Shown piece by piece: positions 45,993-53,030 of a DNA stretch of 64,000 nt. The stretch spans positions 1 to 64,000 of the forward strand of contig JABIHA010000074.1 in NCBI GenBank assembly GCA_018649885.1. The letters are read 5' to 3'. The translations under genes were made by a program, and so were the position numbers. The DNA is from Bacteriovoracaceae bacterium. Lineage in GTDB: Bacteria; Bdellovibrionota; Bacteriovoracia; Bacteriovoracales; Bacteriovoracaceae. The notes below the pieces were generated by a model, which was not told the origin of the DNA, searched no databases, and saw only the letters and a program-made list of their open reading frames with translations. Every line of letters begins with the position of its first letter. Positions within the stretch are counted from its first letter, which is position 1.

Positions 45993-47354
45993 TTAGTTTA
46001 GCGCTTTCTTCACTACTTCTGCCAATTCTTTACAAAGGGCCAGGATCTCCTTTTCAGACTCTCCTTCAATCATGACTCTGGCAAGAGCTTCTGTACCTGA
46101 ATAGCGAAGAATCACTCTACCTGAATCCCCTAGCTCTTTTTCCGTCTTTTTGAGTGCTTTAGATATGGCCTCAACCTGGTCAAATTCAGGTTTAGTGGCC
46201 ACTCGCACATTTTCCATCACTTGTGGAAAAAGAGTAATCTCACCAATTAAATCACAAAGAGGTCTTTGATAAAATTTAACTGCTTCGAGTATTTTGAGTG
46301 CTGCGAGAATTCCATCTCCAGTAGTAGAAAATTGCCTAAATATAATATGCCCTGAGGGTTCTCCTCCTAAAATAGCACCAGACTTTTTCATTCTCTCTAA
46401 AATATAGCGGTCTCCCACATCAGCTCGATGAAACTTAAGACCAATACCTTCAATAAATTTCTCAAGCCCTAGATTTGACATTGTTGTACCAACAACCTCA
46501 TCACCCGGCCCTAGCTCGCCTTTATCTAACAAAAATTTTGCACATACACCGATCAGTCTATCACCGTGAACAACTTGCGAGCGCTCATTAATCATTGTTA
46601 GGCGGTCGCCGTCTCCATCTAAGCAAATCCCAAGGTCTGCTCTGTAAGTGGAAACCATGTCAGCACAATTTTTTGGAAAAAGTGAGCCACACATAAGATT
46701 AATATTTTTCCCGTTGGGGTTATCACCCATAGAAACGACCTCCGCTCCCAATTCTTCAAAAACCATGGGAGCCACTCTATAGGCAGCTCCATTGGCCCCA
46801 TCAACAATCAGTCTGAGTCCGGCAAGAGAGCAATCACTCCCAAGAGCAGATTTAACATGAACAATATAACGGCCGTGAATCTCATCAATTCTTTTAGTTC
46901 TTCCAAGTTCACCATCAGATTTAAGAGGAAGAGACACTTCTCCCAAAGTCATCTTTTCTAATTCTAACTCCACGGCGTCTGGAAGCTTGTTTCCCTCATT
47001 ATCAAAAATTTTAATTCCATTGTCGTGAAACGGGTTATGAGAAGCTGAAATCATTACCCCTGCATCGGCCCTCATACTCTGGACAACAAAGGCCACTCCT
47101 GGTGTTGGAAGAGGTCCAGTAAGAATGGCCCTGCCCCCTTGAGAGCATACCCCTGAGGCAAAAGCTTGCTCAATCATATAGCAGCTAAGCCTGGTGTCTT
47201 TCCCGATAATAATGAGAGGCGTTCTTCCCCGTTGTAATTTTTGAAAATAGTGCGTGACGGCCCGGCCTAAGGCCATGGCGATTTCACCAGTGATCGGATA
47301 GAGATTTGCCTTGCCGCGAACCCCATCAGTTCCAAAAAGCTTTCTTTTTGTCAT
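45993..47354 (-). CDS. glmM: Phosphoglucosamine mutase
   Basis: FGTDGVRG, SASHNP, DGDGDR and RYSGTE. Confidence 0.97.
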   Translation of the reverse strand: MTKRKLFGTDGVRGKANLYPITGEIAMALGRAVTHYFQKLQRGRTPLIIIGKDTRLSCYMIEQAFASGVCSQGGRAILTGPLPTPGVAFVVQSMRADAGVMISASHNPFHDNGIKIFDNEGNKLPDAVELELEKMTLGEVSLPLKSDGELGRTKRIDEIHGRYIVHVKSALGSDCSLAGLRLIVDGANGAAYRVAPMVFEELGAEVVSMGDNPNGKNINLMCGSLFPKNCADMVSTYRADLGICLDGDGDRLTMINERSQVVHGDRLIGVCAKFLLDKGELGPGDEVVGTTMSNLGLEKFIEGIGLKFHRADVGDRYILERMKKSGAILGGEPSGHIIFRQFSTTGDGILAALKILEAVKFYQRPLCDLIGEITLFPQVMENVRVATKPEFDQVEAISKALKKTEKELGDSGRVILRYSGTEALARVMIEGESEKEILALCKELAEVVKKALN

Positions 47355-47426
47355 AATGTCTCCGTTTCTTTGAGAAGCCATATTATCAATTAATCAATGT
47401 CTTTGGAAGAAATCTTAACTGATCTG

Positions 47427-48323
47427 CTATTTGATTTTTACAGAAATCTTTTCAGGGTGAACTTTTAAGAGATGAATGTCGTCAGGCAGTAATGCCTTGA
47501 GAGCGATTTTGACTTTCCCAGAGCTGCTCTCTGGGATATCGGCAACAATTTGGACCTCACTTTTACTAATTTTTCTACCAGGCTCTTCGGCCAGTACTTC
47601 TAAAGTTGCATAACGATGTGAAGCAGAGACAATTTTTTTGGAACTTAGAAATCTTATTTTCAGCTTTTTGAGCGTTAGATTGGCAGAGGTAGGCCGAACT
47701 TGATAATGAAGTTTGATATCCCGCTCCTTGTCAATATGAACGACTCTGGAATCTTCCATTAGAGGAAACACATTGAGACTGCCTTCACCTTTAAGGGTTG
47801 AAAGATCAACCGGCTTAGTTGGTACGGAGCTAACTTCATCAACAAGAGATTTTGGTCCACCAATAGTTATGGTTTTTTTAGATAATTTTTTTGAAAGGAT
47901 CTTTTGCCCCTCAGATACTTCCCCCACTAAAGACATCTTAAGCGGAACTTTCTTTTCATAATATTTATCAATTTTAATTTCAATAAACTCAGGCCTTAGA
48001 ACCTTTGTACTCACCCCCAAAGGAACTGAAACCATGTCCCCATTAGGTTTTAGCTTATAAGACTTTTGCTTTTTCTTAAATTTATGGCGTATATCCATTA
48101 CAATTTTTTGATCACTTCTGGCCAAGTTTCGCAGGAAAGCACGGGGTCCTGTAAATTTAAAGTTAACTTCAGTTTCTGACAGAGAAAGAACTTTATAACC
48201 TTTGGGAGTAATTACCTCCACTTCTAGGGACTTTTCAATTTCCAGTGGCAATGTACTCAGAACATAAATCCAAAGTAAGAAGGAGAAGAAGAGGGAGAAA
48301 AATTTGAGTATATTTTTATTCAA
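47427..48323 (-). CDS. cdaR: YbbR/CdaR regulator of diadenylate cyclase
   Basis: N-terminal TM and YbbR-like repeats; between cdaA and glmM. Confidence 0.85.
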   Translation of the reverse strand: MNKNILKFFSLFFSFLLWIYVLSTLPLEIEKSLEVEVITPKGYKVLSLSETEVNFKFTGPRAFLRNLARSDQKIVMDIRHKFKKKQKSYKLKPNGDMVSVPLGVSTKVLRPEFIEIKIDKYYEKKVPLKMSLVGEVSEGQKILSKKLSKKTITIGGPKSLVDEVSSVPTKPVDLSTLKGEGSLNVFPLMEDSRVVHIDKERDIKLHYQVRPTSANLTLKKLKIRFLSSKKIVSASHRYATLEVLAEEPGRKISKSEVQIVADIPESSSGKVKIALKALLPDDIHLLKVHPEKISVKIK

Positions 48324-49126
48324 ACTTTGTCCCCTCTAAGGCGTCTATTATGGGTGATACCACTTTCTGCTATAAGAAGCCGGTACAGGCCATCTCTCAT
48401 TTCTTTTGGTCCGACCAGGGGGATTATTTCTGCTCTGTGAAAGAGATGAAATTTTCCAGTCTCTTCACTGACAGTAATGACAACGCAGTCGGTGAGCTCA
48501 CTTATTCCCAAGGCCGCCCGGTGCCTAGTGCCCAAATGACGATGAATTTCAACACTTTTAGACAAAGGTAAGAAGCAACCTGCAGAGTTGAGTCTATTTC
48601 CTGAGATAATAACCGCCCCATCATGAAGAGGACTTTGATGCTGAAAAAGACCATAGAGCAAATCTGCTCCCAAAAGAGAGTCTAGCTTTGTCCCTGTATT
48701 GGCGTAATTGAGAAGTCCATTTTGTTTTTCAAATACAATTAAGGCGCCTAGCTTTTCTTTACTCAAGGCCCAGCTTGCCTCTACCACTTCTTCTATTAAC
48801 CCCTCGGTCGTCTTCCCTCTCCTGCGACTCCAAAGACCCGCTCTTCCCACTGAGACTAATGCCTGCCTTATGGGATCTTGAAAGAGGATCACCATTATGA
48901 TGAAAAAATCTCTAAAAAATTGTCTTAGTATCCAATTGAGAGAATAAAGTTCATATGAGCTACTTACGATGAACAAAATCACTAAGGCCATGAGCCCAAA
49001 TAACATCTGGACACCACGAGTTCCCTGCAGAATTAACAAGAAATTATATAAAACGATCGCCACAATAAAAATATCTAGCGAGTCGGTCCAAGTAAATTGT
49101 CCTATAAATTCGCTCAAGCGATCCAT
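48320..49126 (-). CDS. cdaA: Diadenylate cyclase CdaA/DacA
   Basis: Three TM helices; catalytic PLHDGA and GTRHRAA motifs. Confidence 0.95.
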   Translation of the reverse strand: MDRLSEFIGQFTWTDSLDIFIVAIVLYNFLLILQGTRGVQMLFGLMALVILFIVSSSYELYSLNWILRQFFRDFFIIMVILFQDPIRQALVSVGRAGLWSRRRGKTTEGLIEEVVEASWALSKEKLGALIVFEKQNGLLNYANTGTKLDSLLGADLLYGLFQHQSPLHDGAVIISGNRLNSAGCFLPLSKSVEIHRHLGTRHRAALGISELTDCVVITVSEETGKFHLFHRAEIIPLVGPKEMRDGLYRLLIAESGITHNRRLRGDKV

Positions 49127-49211
49127 AGATTTACCTTTTCTAAACAATCCATATAACATAGTTTCGACTTTCCAATTTTATGATTAAATTATTTAAAAAA
49201 GGATTTATGAT

Positions 49212-49658
49212 ATGGATAATTTGGCCACCTTAGAAATTGAGACCGATGGAATGGGCCTTACTGATATAACAGACCAAATTAGGGTTTTGTTTAACCAGTA
49301 CTTTTCAAAAATCATCAGCGTCTATCCATGCGGTATTCTCCACTTTCATATTCCCCATACCAGCTGTGCCATTACAATGTCCGAGGCATTTGATCCCAGT
49401 GCAAAAAAAGATCTTGAAAGTTTTATGGATCATATAGCACCTCAAAACCTCCCTTTCATTACCCATACAGCAGAAGGTCCAGATGACTCTCCCTCTCATA
49501 TGAAATCGATTATTGTTGGTGAAAATAGATTTGTTTTTATTGATGCTGGACAACTCTTACTTGGAACTTGGCAGGGGATCTATTTATGTGAGTTCAGGTC
49601 ATCACCAAAAAAACGTAAGATCCATATGAAGTACGCTCCCGATGCTTTCAATATATAG
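49212..49658 (+). CDS. yjbQ: YjbQ/UPF0047 protein
   Basis: PHTS, H..EG.DD...H.K and LGTWQGIYLCEF. Confidence 0.92.
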   Translation: MDNLATLEIETDGMGLTDITDQIRVLFNQYFSKIISVYPCGILHFHIPHTSCAITMSEAFDPSAKKDLESFMDHIAPQNLPFITHTAEGPDDSPSHMKSIIVGENRFVFIDAGQLLLGTWQGIYLCEFRSSPKKRKIHMKYAPDAFNI

Positions 49659-49787
49659 TTAGTTTTCTGTACATGGTGCTCATATTCTTCATAGCTGGGT
49701 TTACTCAGATCTGTTCACTCCTGGGGAATTTCACCCAATTTGCAAAACTTAAAGGCCTTGAATTTTAAAGAGTTTTTAAAGGGTTTT

Positions 49788-49803
49788 TGGCACCATCTTT
49801 GCT
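49788..49803 (+). promoter_or_regulatory. Sigma54 (-24/-12) promoter
   Basis: TGGCAC-CATCT-TTGCT matches the TGGCAC-N5-TTGCW consensus exactly. Confidence 0.8.
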
Positions 49804-49813
49804 CTTATAAGAG

Positions 49814-49910
49814 CTAGGATGGCAAGTGCGTTTCTCTCCCCTACCCATAGTGCAAGCTCGCCATCACTAGAATAAGGCATCCAAGCTTCCCCCCGGCTTG
49901 GGTGCCTTTT
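49814..49910 (+). ncRNA. Candidate sigma54-dependent small RNA (~97 nt, two stem-loops with C-rich loops)
   Basis: Predicted +1 coincides with the 5' arm of stem 1 (CTAGGATGGC/GCCATC-A-CTAG); stem 2 is a 13-bp terminator-like hairpin ending TTTT. Confidence 0.7.
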
Positions 49911-49921
49911 ACTATATTTGC

Positions 49922-51901
49922 TTAGGCAGCTTCCTTATCATCAGATGATATTAAAGTATTTGGTGAAATCGGCACAACATTTTTTGTCTCAAGAGATTCT
50001 ATAATTTTATCGGCCTGCAATAATTTCTTTCGGAGGGCCTCTCTAGAAATACCCATCGCCTTTGCAGCTTTTGATTTATTGTTACCATTTCTTTTTATTT
50101 CGGCAAAAATTAACTTCCTCTCAATAAGCGCCATTCTGTCTTTTAGAGGAATACTGTAATCCGATGCAAAAGGAATATCTCCAAAAACCTGATAAGTCGA
50201 TTTGGTTTGATCGTAAAGTGGTAAGGCCTGATCGGGAAGCTTTGATATTGTATGAGATTTAGGATTATATGTAACCATTCGTGAAATACAATTTCCAAGC
50301 TCTTTAACATTACCTGGCCAATCATAATCCTTAAGCTTGCCCAAAATTTTGGGAGACATAGTCTTTTCGAGTAGTCCTTGTTTTTTGCATTCATTTTTCA
50401 AGAAGTAAGAAATCAACTCCTCAATATCTTTCCCTCTTTTTCTTAGTGAAGGCATTTCAATGGGTGTTTGAGCAAGAAACTCATAGAGATCTTTATTGAA
50501 CTCACCATTATTCACCATTCCCTCTAGATCTTTTGAGGAGGTGGTATGAAGTCTAACATCTAAGGCCACAGTCGAGCCTTCAATAGTTTTTTGAGAGAGC
50601 ACTTCAACAAGTTTTTTCTGATGAGGAATTGGGAGAAAACAAATTTCTTGTAGAACAAGTGTTCCTCCGTGAGAGTTTGCAAGTTTGCCTCCGAGATCTC
50701 CCTTACCAAAAAGTTCTTCCCAAATTGCATCTTCTTCTTTCCCACCACAAGTCACACATTCATAGCTCTTAGGACCTCTTGGACCCTCTTTATGGATAAT
50801 TCTAGAAAGCAGAGATTTTCCACTTCCATACTCTCCATTTACAAGAAGTGGGGTTTCCAAATTTTTAACTTTTATAATCGACTCTCTTACTCCCTTCATC
50901 ACCTGAGACTTTCCTATCAACACAAATTCCCGGTTGAATGGAGGAGAGAATCTTCTAATTGTCGATTTTTCTGAAATAGGATCATAGTCGTGAAAAATAG
51001 CAGAAAGTACTAAAGATAAAACTTTTAGTGTAATTTCATCTTCACTATTGAATCTTTCAAAGCTTCTCTTATTGAGAATCATAATCACACCAACGACTTT
51101 TTCTTCGCGATTGTGAAAGGGGTAACTAAGTACAGATTTAGGCTCTACACCAAAGCGGTGTTCTGGATCATCTGGCTTAATTCTTGAAGTATTTTTTCTA
51201 AAATCAATATTGAGCGGGATTCCTGTGGTAAATACAGCTCCGGGAACTCCAAGTCGGTAATCAAACTTGAGGTCTTCTTTGGGAACTCCAAAGGCCGCAA
51301 TACTTTGTAATTCATTTTCTTCAGTATTAATTAAAAATAGACTTGCCCTAGATCCATGAACATTTCTCACAACATCTTGCAGTACTCCATTGATAAAATC
51401 CTCTCTTCTTCCAAAGTTAGTCATATCTTTGAAAATAGACAACAGGAGTGAAAACATTTCCATGCCTTCATTTGAACTTGTGTATCTTTCTTTTAATGCT
51501 GATTTTGATAGACACTCTCTAAGTCTCTCATGAGAAAAACTGTGAACGAAGGCCTCTATGAATTTTTTAAGATCTCCAAAATCTTCCTCTTCAAACTCCA
51601 CTCCATATATAATCAGCTCTTCGTTATGAGAATCCGAAAACGCTCTCACAACAGTAGATTTCAAGTCTAGTGAAAATCCTTTAAAGTGAAGAGAAACTCT
51701 CAATTCATCTTCAGATGAAATTCTCTCTTTGGTTTTAAAACCAAGACCTGTCACACTCACATCAACAAGCTTGCCATCATCTATATATACAAAGTTGCCA
51801 CTATCATCTTCTTTCTCCACTAAAAATCGAATATCATCGGCCTCCTCAATAGCAATCCTATAGGATTGATAGAAGCGGTATTCTGACATACTTGATAACA
51901 T
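49922..51901 (-). CDS. PilZ-GAF-AAA+(sigma54-activator-like)-Fis HTH regulator, degenerate
   Basis: DVSVTG PilZ motif, GAF, GEYGSGKS, WPGNVKEL and NKSKAAKAMGISR; no GAFTGA. Confidence 0.88.
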   Translation of the reverse strand: MLSSMSEYRFYQSYRIAIEEADDIRFLVEKEDDSGNFVYIDDGKLVDVSVTGLGFKTKERISSEDELRVSLHFKGFSLDLKSTVVRAFSDSHNEELIIYGVEFEEEDFGDLKKFIEAFVHSFSHERLRECLSKSALKERYTSSNEGMEMFSLLLSIFKDMTNFGRREDFINGVLQDVVRNVHGSRASLFLINTEENELQSIAAFGVPKEDLKFDYRLGVPGAVFTTGIPLNIDFRKNTSRIKPDDPEHRFGVEPKSVLSYPFHNREEKVVGVIMILNKRSFERFNSEDEITLKVLSLVLSAIFHDYDPISEKSTIRRFSPPFNREFVLIGKSQVMKGVRESIIKVKNLETPLLVNGEYGSGKSLLSRIIHKEGPRGPKSYECVTCGGKEEDAIWEELFGKGDLGGKLANSHGGTLVLQEICFLPIPHQKKLVEVLSQKTIEGSTVALDVRLHTTSSKDLEGMVNNGEFNKDLYEFLAQTPIEMPSLRKRGKDIEELISYFLKNECKKQGLLEKTMSPKILGKLKDYDWPGNVKELGNCISRMVTYNPKSHTISKLPDQALPLYDQTKSTYQVFGDIPFASDYSIPLKDRMALIERKLIFAEIKRNGNNKSKAAKAMGISREALRKKLLQADKIIESLETKNVVPISPNTLISSDDKEAA

Positions 51902-52166
51902 AGATTGCCTCCCAAAAGAGATATTTCAATACATCTAGTCGGTAATCCACCCCTTTAACTTAGCTCTTTGCCATAAATAATTGCCAATTTTAAATTCACA
52001 CTTCCCTGACCTTTTAAGTCAGGTTTCAATGAGATCACTTTACCCATAACGACATCTAGGCAATTATCCCAACTCATTACAAAGGAGATTCTAGTTTATC
52101 TTAAGTTATTTTAACTTTATGAAAGCTGTACAGGGAAGTTTAATTACCCAAGTGTAAAGCTATGTT

Positions 52167-53030
52167 TTAACACAAAAGAGAAATAATCATGGATGCCACA
52201 TTTTGAGCTGAGCACTCTTCCCAGTGTTCAAAACTGGGCATTGAATTAACCTCTAAAATGAGGGGGCATGACCCATCAAAAATGAAATCAATGGCCCCAT
52301 AACTAAGCTTTGAAGTTCTCATCACTGACTCTGCTAATGACCTTAAGGACTGGTCTAACTGTCCCAAACTTATAAACTTGGCCGAAGTCTTATACTGATG
52401 GTTTTTTTTCACCTGAGTACCAGTCTTTTCAATGGCCCCCAGGATTTCTCCCCCCACGAACATTACCCGACATTCTTTCTCGGCTTTAACGAATGGCTGA
52501 ATCAAGAAGTTTTGATCTTTTTGATAAAACTGAGTTTCAAGCACACCACAAAGCTCATCAAAGTGAGATATTTTAAATACCCCTTTGCCTCCATTGCCCC
52601 AAAAAGTTTTGACCATATATGCTCCACCTTCTCCCAGAGCACTCGACATATTTCTAACCGAAGCCTCATTTATCGGCCCTCTGTGAATATAGCTTCTCAC
52701 ATGTGCAAGCTCATGAGACTTAAGCCATAGAAGCTGCGAAGCCTTGGAGCGGAACACTTCAATACAATCTGGGTCATTAATGAGCTTCGCACCCATAGCT
52801 TTCAACCCTCTCGACACAAGAAGATCATAGCTATCCCTCAAAACACCTGAGCTGCGATGAATTACATAATCTGGCACTTCTGCCACTTCTGGCCCACACT
52901 CGCTTGTTGAAAGATAAAATGGGTTTGCACACACCACACTAAGACCTGCATGCTGGGCCTCCTCAATTAACTTTCTATTGGAGTAGCTATGTGGATTCAA
53001 AGTCATTATTTCTAAATTTTTTCGCTTCAA
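52167..53030 (-). CDS. RimK-family ATP-grasp ligase
   Basis: VK...G.GG.GV, LIQPFV and LEVNS.P. Confidence 0.85.
   Translation of the reverse strand: MKRKNLEIMTLNPHSYSNRKLIEEAQHAGLSVVCANPFYLSTSECGPEVAEVPDYVIHRSSGVLRDSYDLLVSRGLKAMGAKLINDPDCIEVFRSKASQLLWLKSHELAHVRSYIHRGPINEASVRNMSSALGEGGAYMVKTFWGNGGKGVFKISHFDELCGVLETQFYQKDQNFLIQPFVKAEKECRVMFVGGEILGAIEKTGTQVKKNHQYKTSAKFISLGQLDQSLRSLAESVMRTSKLSYGAIDFIFDGSCPLILEVNSMPSFEHWEECSAQNVASMIISLLC

Follow-up and report, generated by a model that had tools for sequence, protein, structure and literature searches.

Pxr of Myxococcus xanthus, an RNA of about 100 nt with a predicted sigma54 promoter, an exposed C run and an activator-like gene adjacent to it, is a described small RNA whose design resembles that of the locus reported here. 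Pxr lies downstream of the gene for the NtrC-like response regulator PxrR/Nla19, which is its regulator (PMC5684412, PMC5568312, PMC11928866). It is conserved across its suborder and forms three stem-loops, the first of which carries UUCCCCCC, as implied by a primer given in PMC5568312; some Cystobacter paralogs have two stem-loops (PMC5568312). Processing to a short form and a part in the control of development also characterise Pxr. In the accounts cited, the direct targets of Pxr are called uncharacterised, with one predicted candidate (PMC5684412, PMC5568312, PMC11928866).

RepG of Helicobacter pylori, which is also conserved, uses the C/U-rich loop of its terminator to pair with G-rich leaders, its target being a poly-G repeat (PMC8295292). 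NfeR1/alpha-r14 is made from a sigma70 promoter, carries anti-Shine-Dalgarno motifs on three hairpins with CCUCCUCCC, and represses translation (PMC10746234). CJnc230/FlmE of Campylobacter jejuni is about 98 nt long, forms two stem-loops, is linked to RpoN and acts as a repressor by covering ribosome-binding sites; it lies downstream of flgE and has its seed between the stems (PMC11187230). The nearest account concerns Bdellovibrio, for which eight attack-phase RNAs are listed in PMC3627812. The literature searched (main texts, few subscription journals) yielded no paper that deals with small RNAs or with sigma54 promoters in predators of the Bacteriovorax type, nor any description of the candidate RNA itself, supplementary tables aside.

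The stretch of DNA analysed here, referred to as the window, comprises 64,000 nucleotides (G000:C43:1-64000) of a Bacteriovoracaceae assembly of 5.45 Mb with 38% GC that is 92% complete, and the sequencing runs in which most of it is found come from marine or seawater metagenomes. A sequence-only reading of the window had proposed an unannotated trans-acting small RNA made from a sigma54 promoter and had likened it to Pxr. The likeness extends to the design alone. The Pxr model RF01812 had no match at E<=5 in 47000-52500, nor at E<=10 genome-wide, and the gene next to the candidate is unlike pxrR in that it is convergent, PilZ-led, without GAFTGA and unlinked to such a promoter in 68 relatives, so the candidate was rejected as a Pxr homologue on both model match and gene context. 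The candidate has two stem-loops and was found in one genome only, and its UUCCCCCC C run sits in the terminator loop instead of the first stem-loop. Its main predicted seed is loop 1 and not the terminator loop used by RepG (PMC8295292), to which the likeness implies no homology. It shares with NfeR1/alpha-r14 the placement of anti-Shine-Dalgarno motifs on hairpins, but it has two hairpins, lacks CCUCCUCCC and gave no Rfam match. Unlike CJnc230, it has its own promoter and loop-borne seeds (PMC11187230). As in anti-Shine-Dalgarno RNAs, an exposed pyrimidine seed complementary to start regions is predicted.

Results

The sigma54 (-24/-12) promoter lies on the + strand at 49788-49803 and is, as had been described, a perfect TGGCAC-N5-TTGCT; it is prolonged by CTT, as is typical of this genome, and by an AT-rich stretch. 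It is the sole perfect site in the window, where 0.06 sites were expected from shuffles and 6 of 100 window shuffles reached one. The source genome, in which rpoN was found, contains 51 TGGCAY-N5-TTGCW sites; 46 of these are non-coding and the remaining five sit in coding DNA, although non-coding DNA makes up only 14% of the genome, whereas just 2 of 36 sites with control spacers of 4, 6 or 7 nt were non-coding. When scored with a PWM built from the other 45 sigma54 sites of the genome, the candidate promoter reached 27.7, which places it in the top tier of a range that spans 15.9-30.2 for those 45 sites. This score and the contrast with the mis-spaced sites make it very likely that the promoter is real.

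By established numbering the conserved C of a sigma54 promoter is -12, and counted in this way the predicted +1 is 49814, the first base of stem 1, as the sequence-only reading had it. Since a C occupies this position, transcription may in fact begin at a purine 1-2 nt away. An imperfect DNA palindrome of 30 bp (49793-49822; 26/30, BLAST self-match E 0.004) spans the -12 box and +1 and has the longest perfect arm (7) among 46 sigma54 sites; it might act as an operator or reflect how stem 1 came about. The non-coding stretch upstream of the promoter (49659-49787, +) offers room for an activator site, and none was identified there.

The element sits in a 263-nt gap between yjbQ (UPF0047; 49212-49658, +) and a convergent gene (49922-51901, -) that encodes a protein with PilZ, AAA+ (Sigma54_activat) and Fis-type HTH domains and is matched in 138 of 150 other family genomes. 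No gene follows on the + strand, in agreement with the earlier description, and no same-strand ORF of at least 100 aa occurs for 3.3 kb downstream of the element. An adjoining enhancer-binding protein gene had been part of the comparison with Pxr. An activator-like gene is indeed adjacent, but it is convergent, no receiver domain was reported for its product by Pfam, QE replaces the Walker B DE, and GAFTGA is absent. Because contact with sigma54 depends on GAFTGA (PMC10274813), the neighbour probably does not drive the promoter and was rejected as its activator. It is possibly a c-di-GMP-sensing, sigma54-independent regulator. Six activators encoded elsewhere in the genome retain GAFTGA. On the other side of yjbQ, and divergent from it, the window contains a cdaA-cdaR(ybbR)-glmM cluster, a diadenylate cyclase module (45993-49159, -).

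Behind the promoter a small RNA of about 97 nt is predicted on the + strand at 49814-49911, with both ends inferred. The whole RNA region folds at -39.9 kcal/mol (z -4.16), a value equalled by none of 200 shuffles. Among 47 sigma54 starts in the source genome, the 100 nt behind the candidate promoter are the most structured (z -4.49), and two other RNA genes described below, at C62 and C25, rank second and fourth (z -4.36 and -3.18). Folding confirmed the two hairpins with C-rich loops, the second ending in a short U run. Stem-loop 1 (49814-49870, +) is moderately significant when folded alone (z -2.2, p 0.022). Its open, C/U-rich loop 1 (49830-49851, +), which is the predicted seed, measures 20-22 nt in the fold, holds a C/U-rich 16-mer at 49831-49846 and contains UCUCUC and CCUACC; the predicted unpaired probability of its core is about 0.7-1.0. 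Stem-loop 2 (49874-49911, +), a predicted terminator with a short U tail, has a stem spanning 49874-49908 with 14 bp, including two G-U pairs, and a 7-nt loop of U-C6; an earlier description of 13 bp and a 9-nt loop refers to the same hairpin. Stem 2 has an energy of -22.3 kcal/mol on the + strand versus -16.8 on the - strand, and it possibly also terminates the mRNA of the convergent gene. A consensus terminator scan of 49100-50100 called no terminator, and the U tail of stem 2 is short. Loops with C5 are rare in the source genome, occurring in 2 of 166 terminator-like hairpins.

An Rfam scan of 47000-52500 gave two chance matches only, and no family matched the candidate. Csr/Rsm decoy RNAs have several GGA motifs in loops; the candidate differs in that its single GGA sits in stem 1 and its loops are C/U-rich. 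The source genome encodes csrA, and hfq was not found in it at 92% completeness. Elsewhere in the genome, at G000:C8:38913-39060 (L308), and also at L190, a sigma54 promoter precedes a structured region that contains several GGA motifs; the region at C8 may act as a decoy for CsrA or be a leader to which CsrA binds.

Contigs from three further studies that were not flagged as possible sources of the assembly (runs X14, X6 and X7) cover 49680-49970, 49446-49975 and 49509-49893, respectively, with 0 differences, so the DNA of the element is not an assembly artefact. Eight DNA sequencing runs compared over the element showed no variants.

The sequence-only reading had looked to conservation of the promoter and stem 1, and to a homologue or paralogue search of the Infernal type, for support. 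Neither provided it: promoter and stem 1 were absent in every searched relative. A sigma54 site downstream of the neighbour gene was found in 0 of 68 relatives (a synteny comparison that left out one locus, L028, with a 1-nt flank). In 23 of these 68 the yjbQ stop lies within 44 nt of the end of the neighbour gene and the flanking stops often abut, while in four relatives yjbQ and the convergent gene are separated by 713-1006 nt, which suggests that the site gains and loses DNA. Pattern searches of 185-236 family genomes gave no homologue. The first pattern matched 0 of 236 genomes, the second matched 6 of 236 (all six were folded and were unlike the candidate), and the third matched 12 of 185, judged by match strings and mostly without folding. 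A pattern that included CCUACC matched 12 of 185 genomes, and of its 13 loci, all folded, nine belong to a CCUACC-repeat family described below and none is a homologue.

Covariance models likewise found no candidate homologue in 149 family and 149 phylum genomes. Model R1, made from one sequence plus promoter, had its best non-self match in family genomes at E 0.003, which is the C62-type RNA described below, and its best match in the phylum at E 0.08, which is a promoter ahead of an ORF. Model R2 gave weak matches in 31 of 149 family genomes; at the 30 loci examined there was no sigma54 site, with PWM scores of at most 8.9. No paralogs were found in the source genome by BLAST or nhmmer. A DNA search of 60 relatives returned short matches only, mostly to the AT-rich upstream stretch (best E 0.003), and no related locus was confirmed by a search anchored on the convergent neighbour. 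In 24 of 64 parts of a metagenome collection, there was no homologue among the matches listed (at least 120 loci), and R1 run over 100 of these loci gave one weak match (E 0.024) from a different family. The two-loop pattern had two matches in a genome collection, neither alike, and a search of a viral collection gave nine, none of which resembled the candidate. None of the searches among relatives and across the family turned up a second genome of the source genus. As a control of the method, the same pattern approach detected the C62-type sigma54 RNA in 94 of the 150 family genomes searched and gave 0 matches to controls. Without a homologue no covariation supports stem 1, and since the method does find another sigma54 RNA the element looks recently acquired. 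The candidate is likely a young, lineage-specific small RNA gene, here in one genome.

The sigma54 regulon of the source and family genomes consists largely of single genes for exported proteins with short leaders; by a heuristic, 27 of 37 sigma54 genes have signal-peptide-like ends. Their leaders are enriched in GGAGAG/GAGAG rather than GGAGG. GGAGAG is the top-ranked hexamer (8/37 versus 152/4590), and it is also found in 7 of 45 genes of an independent set with weaker promoters (p 0.0006). However, relatives without the candidate RNA are equally enriched (14/85 versus 17/572; G000 versus relatives, p 0.33), which indicates that the enrichment predates the RNA. It was therefore rejected as proof of targeting; the RNA may exploit GGAGAG leaders, but it did not create them. 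The complement of CCUACC occurs in 0 of 37 sigma54 leaders.

Loop 1 as a seed was compared with random and shuffled sequences. Its complements, counted as 9-mers, occur in 37 start regions versus 6 coding windows, which ranks its start/coding ratio within the top 1-2% for random 22-mers. Shuffles that keep the composition of the loop do as well in 1.4% of trials with 9-mers and 4% with 8-mers, and with 7-mers loop 1 is no better than its own shuffles (p 0.18-0.42). Loop 1 is predicted to pair with ribosome-binding sites of the GGAGAG(A) type, and the terminator loop, U-C6, would serve as an additional but weaker seed, by analogy with RepG. Targets were ranked by duplexfold plus opening energy, not IntaRNA, with gene starts from a simple ORF caller. 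The top predicted targets, of which eight were looked up, are mixed. They include exported proteins at G000 C83:67255, C145:21827, C21:38588 and C61:1065, the last two of which have sigma54-like promoters, and an M6 peptidase (C13:5203); also among the top targets are exported proteins of unknown family, a pectate-lyase-like protein, a carboxyltransferase, a GNAT protein and a TIM-barrel protein. In a first ranking no sigma54 gene was among the top 100; a second ranking had two in the top 30 and five in the top 100, against a background of 58/4627. In this target prediction, which had been proposed earlier, sigma54 genes are weakly represented among the best predicted targets and their enrichment is not clear.

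Two other, conserved RNAs with sigma54 promoters occur in the family. The C62-type RNA (G000:C62:26564-26690, L307, and L463-L492) is about 95 nt long and conserved; it has a GU repeat at the 5' end, a hairpin with AAGGAUU and, ahead of the terminator, GUCUCUC, which is invariant in 32 of 32 aligned copies. Its promoter-plus-GU-repeat pattern is the one present in 94 of 150 family genomes, and its motif fits the excess of GAGAG in leaders of sigma54 genes. It had no Rfam match at cut-off and a weak match to CsrC (E 9e-5). An HMM built from 31 relatives finds C62 (E 8e-10) and nothing on C43 at E<=5; the candidate and the C62-type RNA have only UCUCUC in common. The second is an RNA with repeats of CCUACC(UU) (G000:C25:28332-28560, L306; L200, L262, L287, L316-L330), which has long and short forms, two copies in G076, and a long closing stem around an inner hairpin. 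CCUACC occurs once or twice in each of its 13 members, nine of which were found by that motif, and there was no Rfam match at the curated score. HMMs from 13 and 7 members did not match the candidate at E<=20, and the architecture differs. Within G000, C25 and the candidate are the only non-coding sigma54 sites followed by CCUACC.

In loop 1 of the candidate, UCUCUC is followed by CCUACC, one copy each. Of shuffles of the loop, 0.05-0.26% contain both motifs, and the genome has eight places where the two occur together; the coincidence was noticed post hoc.

Discussion

The data presented here suggest that a strong sigma54 promoter, followed by two C-rich hairpins and no gene, is likely to produce a small regulatory RNA. 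That a real transcript arises from this promoter is judged probable. That it acts as an Hfq-independent anti-Shine-Dalgarno repressor is a more cautious proposal, which we regard as slightly more likely than not. According to this model, one of the six activators with GAFTGA encoded elsewhere would fire the promoter, and sigma54 polymerase would transcribe a two-hairpin RNA of about 97 nt. Loop 1 would then pair, without Hfq, with ribosome-binding sites of the GGGGAGAGA/GGAGAG type, and this pairing would block translation of a set of mRNAs, many of them for exported proteins, with the U-C6 loop assisting as a weaker seed as in RepG. Since the GA-rich leaders and the RNA share a promoter type, the RNA may be a damping arm of the sigma54 regulon. 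The earlier claim of a trans-acting small RNA is therefore upheld by genome-internal statistics as far as the stand-alone sigma54 two-hairpin design with anti-Shine-Dalgarno-like loops is concerned, and it is not upheld by conservation. A lifecycle role, which had also been suggested, is unsupported.

A more speculative extension, and an unlikely one in our estimate, is that the candidate is a newborn RNA in whose single loop 1 the seeds UCUCUC and CCUACC, each taken from an older sigma54 RNA found family-wide, have been fused. It would then be the latest addition to a hidden circuit of sigma54 RNAs that works without Hfq and that marked the exported-protein genes of these predatory bacteria with GA-rich leaders.

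The alternative that survives best, though it too is improbable, is that the element is made of orphaned or cis-acting parts. The promoter would remain from a lost sigma54 gene, or leaky transcription from it would read through, in antisense, into the convergent gene's 3' end; stem 2 would be a two-way terminator, and stem 1 would have no function in trans. This is consistent with the lack of conservation at a site that gains and loses DNA in relatives, with the short U tail on the + strand, and with the ability of stem 2 to fold on the - strand too, where a U-rich run follows. Moreover, a transcript starting slightly upstream could form the promoter palindrome and not stem 1. However, leaders behind other sigma54 promoters are purine-rich with a Shine-Dalgarno sequence, whereas the candidate stretch is C/U-rich and the most structured of the 47. 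The promoter is also undecayed, and C-run loops are rare in terminators of this genome.

It is less probable still that the C-rich loops serve as a decoy, titrating an RNA-binding protein or a G-rich regulatory RNA instead of pairing with ribosome-binding sites of mRNAs. Repeated short motifs are typical of protein-binding RNAs, and such a function would suit the recurrence of CCUACC in all 13 members of the family-wide sigma54 RNA (nine found by the motif), the recurrence of related C-run/UAA/C-run loops across the phylum, and the fact that the CCUACC complement is not enriched in sigma54 leaders. The candidate itself, however, has one copy per motif and no GGA loops, which argues against a CsrA decoy although csrA is present, and the complement of loop 1 is concentrated at start regions.

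It is very unlikely that the sequence is non-functional, with a terminator that is real but a promoter match and a first hairpin that are there by chance. Stem 1 alone is only moderately significant, 5 of the 51 promoter sites are coding and no homologues were found, but a perfect promoter where 0.06 sites per window are expected, a stem at the predicted +1 and two C-rich loops all fall within 125 nt. Least probable is that an 18-residue peptide is encoded on an mRNA with almost no leader (ATG at 49820; the stop codon ends at 49876). The frame is open, and relatives have sigma54 genes in which the ATG follows the promoter start by 28-30 nt, but here the start codon sits within stem 1 and has no Shine-Dalgarno sequence, and the peptide is Ser/Pro-rich, without a hydrophobic segment and not conserved.

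If it is expressed, the anti-Shine-Dalgarno repressor proposed here would be a compact case of a recently arisen regulator, in a place where neighbouring genes often abut and in a genome where hfq was not found. The candidate also served as a pointer. Following it brought to light a sigma54 regulon whose products are mostly exported proteins and whose leaders are GA-rich, as well as a conserved sigma54 RNA, present in 94 of 150 family genomes, whose invariant motif matches these leaders.

Across the phylum, a C5 run shortly after a sigma54 site was found in 61 of 161 genomes, compared with 3 of 36 in the family of the candidate. One uncatalogued RNA of this kind, from another family of the phylum, f15 (L361-L368), has a sigma54 promoter, a hairpin with a C loop of about 20 nt, and a terminator with a C5-7 loop. 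It is conserved, with compensatory pairs at 5 of 17 positions, and had no Rfam match in the two loci scanned. Four of its eight loci lie directly behind a gene of 574-639 aa that is GGDEF-like by eye in two translations. The candidate was the top of 37 matches when the f15 model was run on the 64-kb window (13.6 bits, E 0.052), but it was not among the five matches genome-wide (150 scored of 616 candidates). The layouts of the f15 RNA and the candidate are alike, whereas their neighbours differ and their stems are unrelated in sequence.

Further uncatalogued sigma54 C-loop RNAs occur across the phylum (L369-L371, f14; L348, L372 and L374; L334-L357). In metagenomes, families with a sigma54 promoter and UUCUCUCCCC had no Rfam match in those scanned. 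They comprise a short terminated RNA (L052, L088, L133, L134, L139, L169), a two-stem RNA (L068, L081, L123, L130, L142, L154, L158, L160) and a frequent third family of about 30 or more loci (e.g. L059), besides a single RNA with two C patches (L126). In L068 and L130 the two-stem RNA lies between genes that resemble mtgA and mepA by eye.
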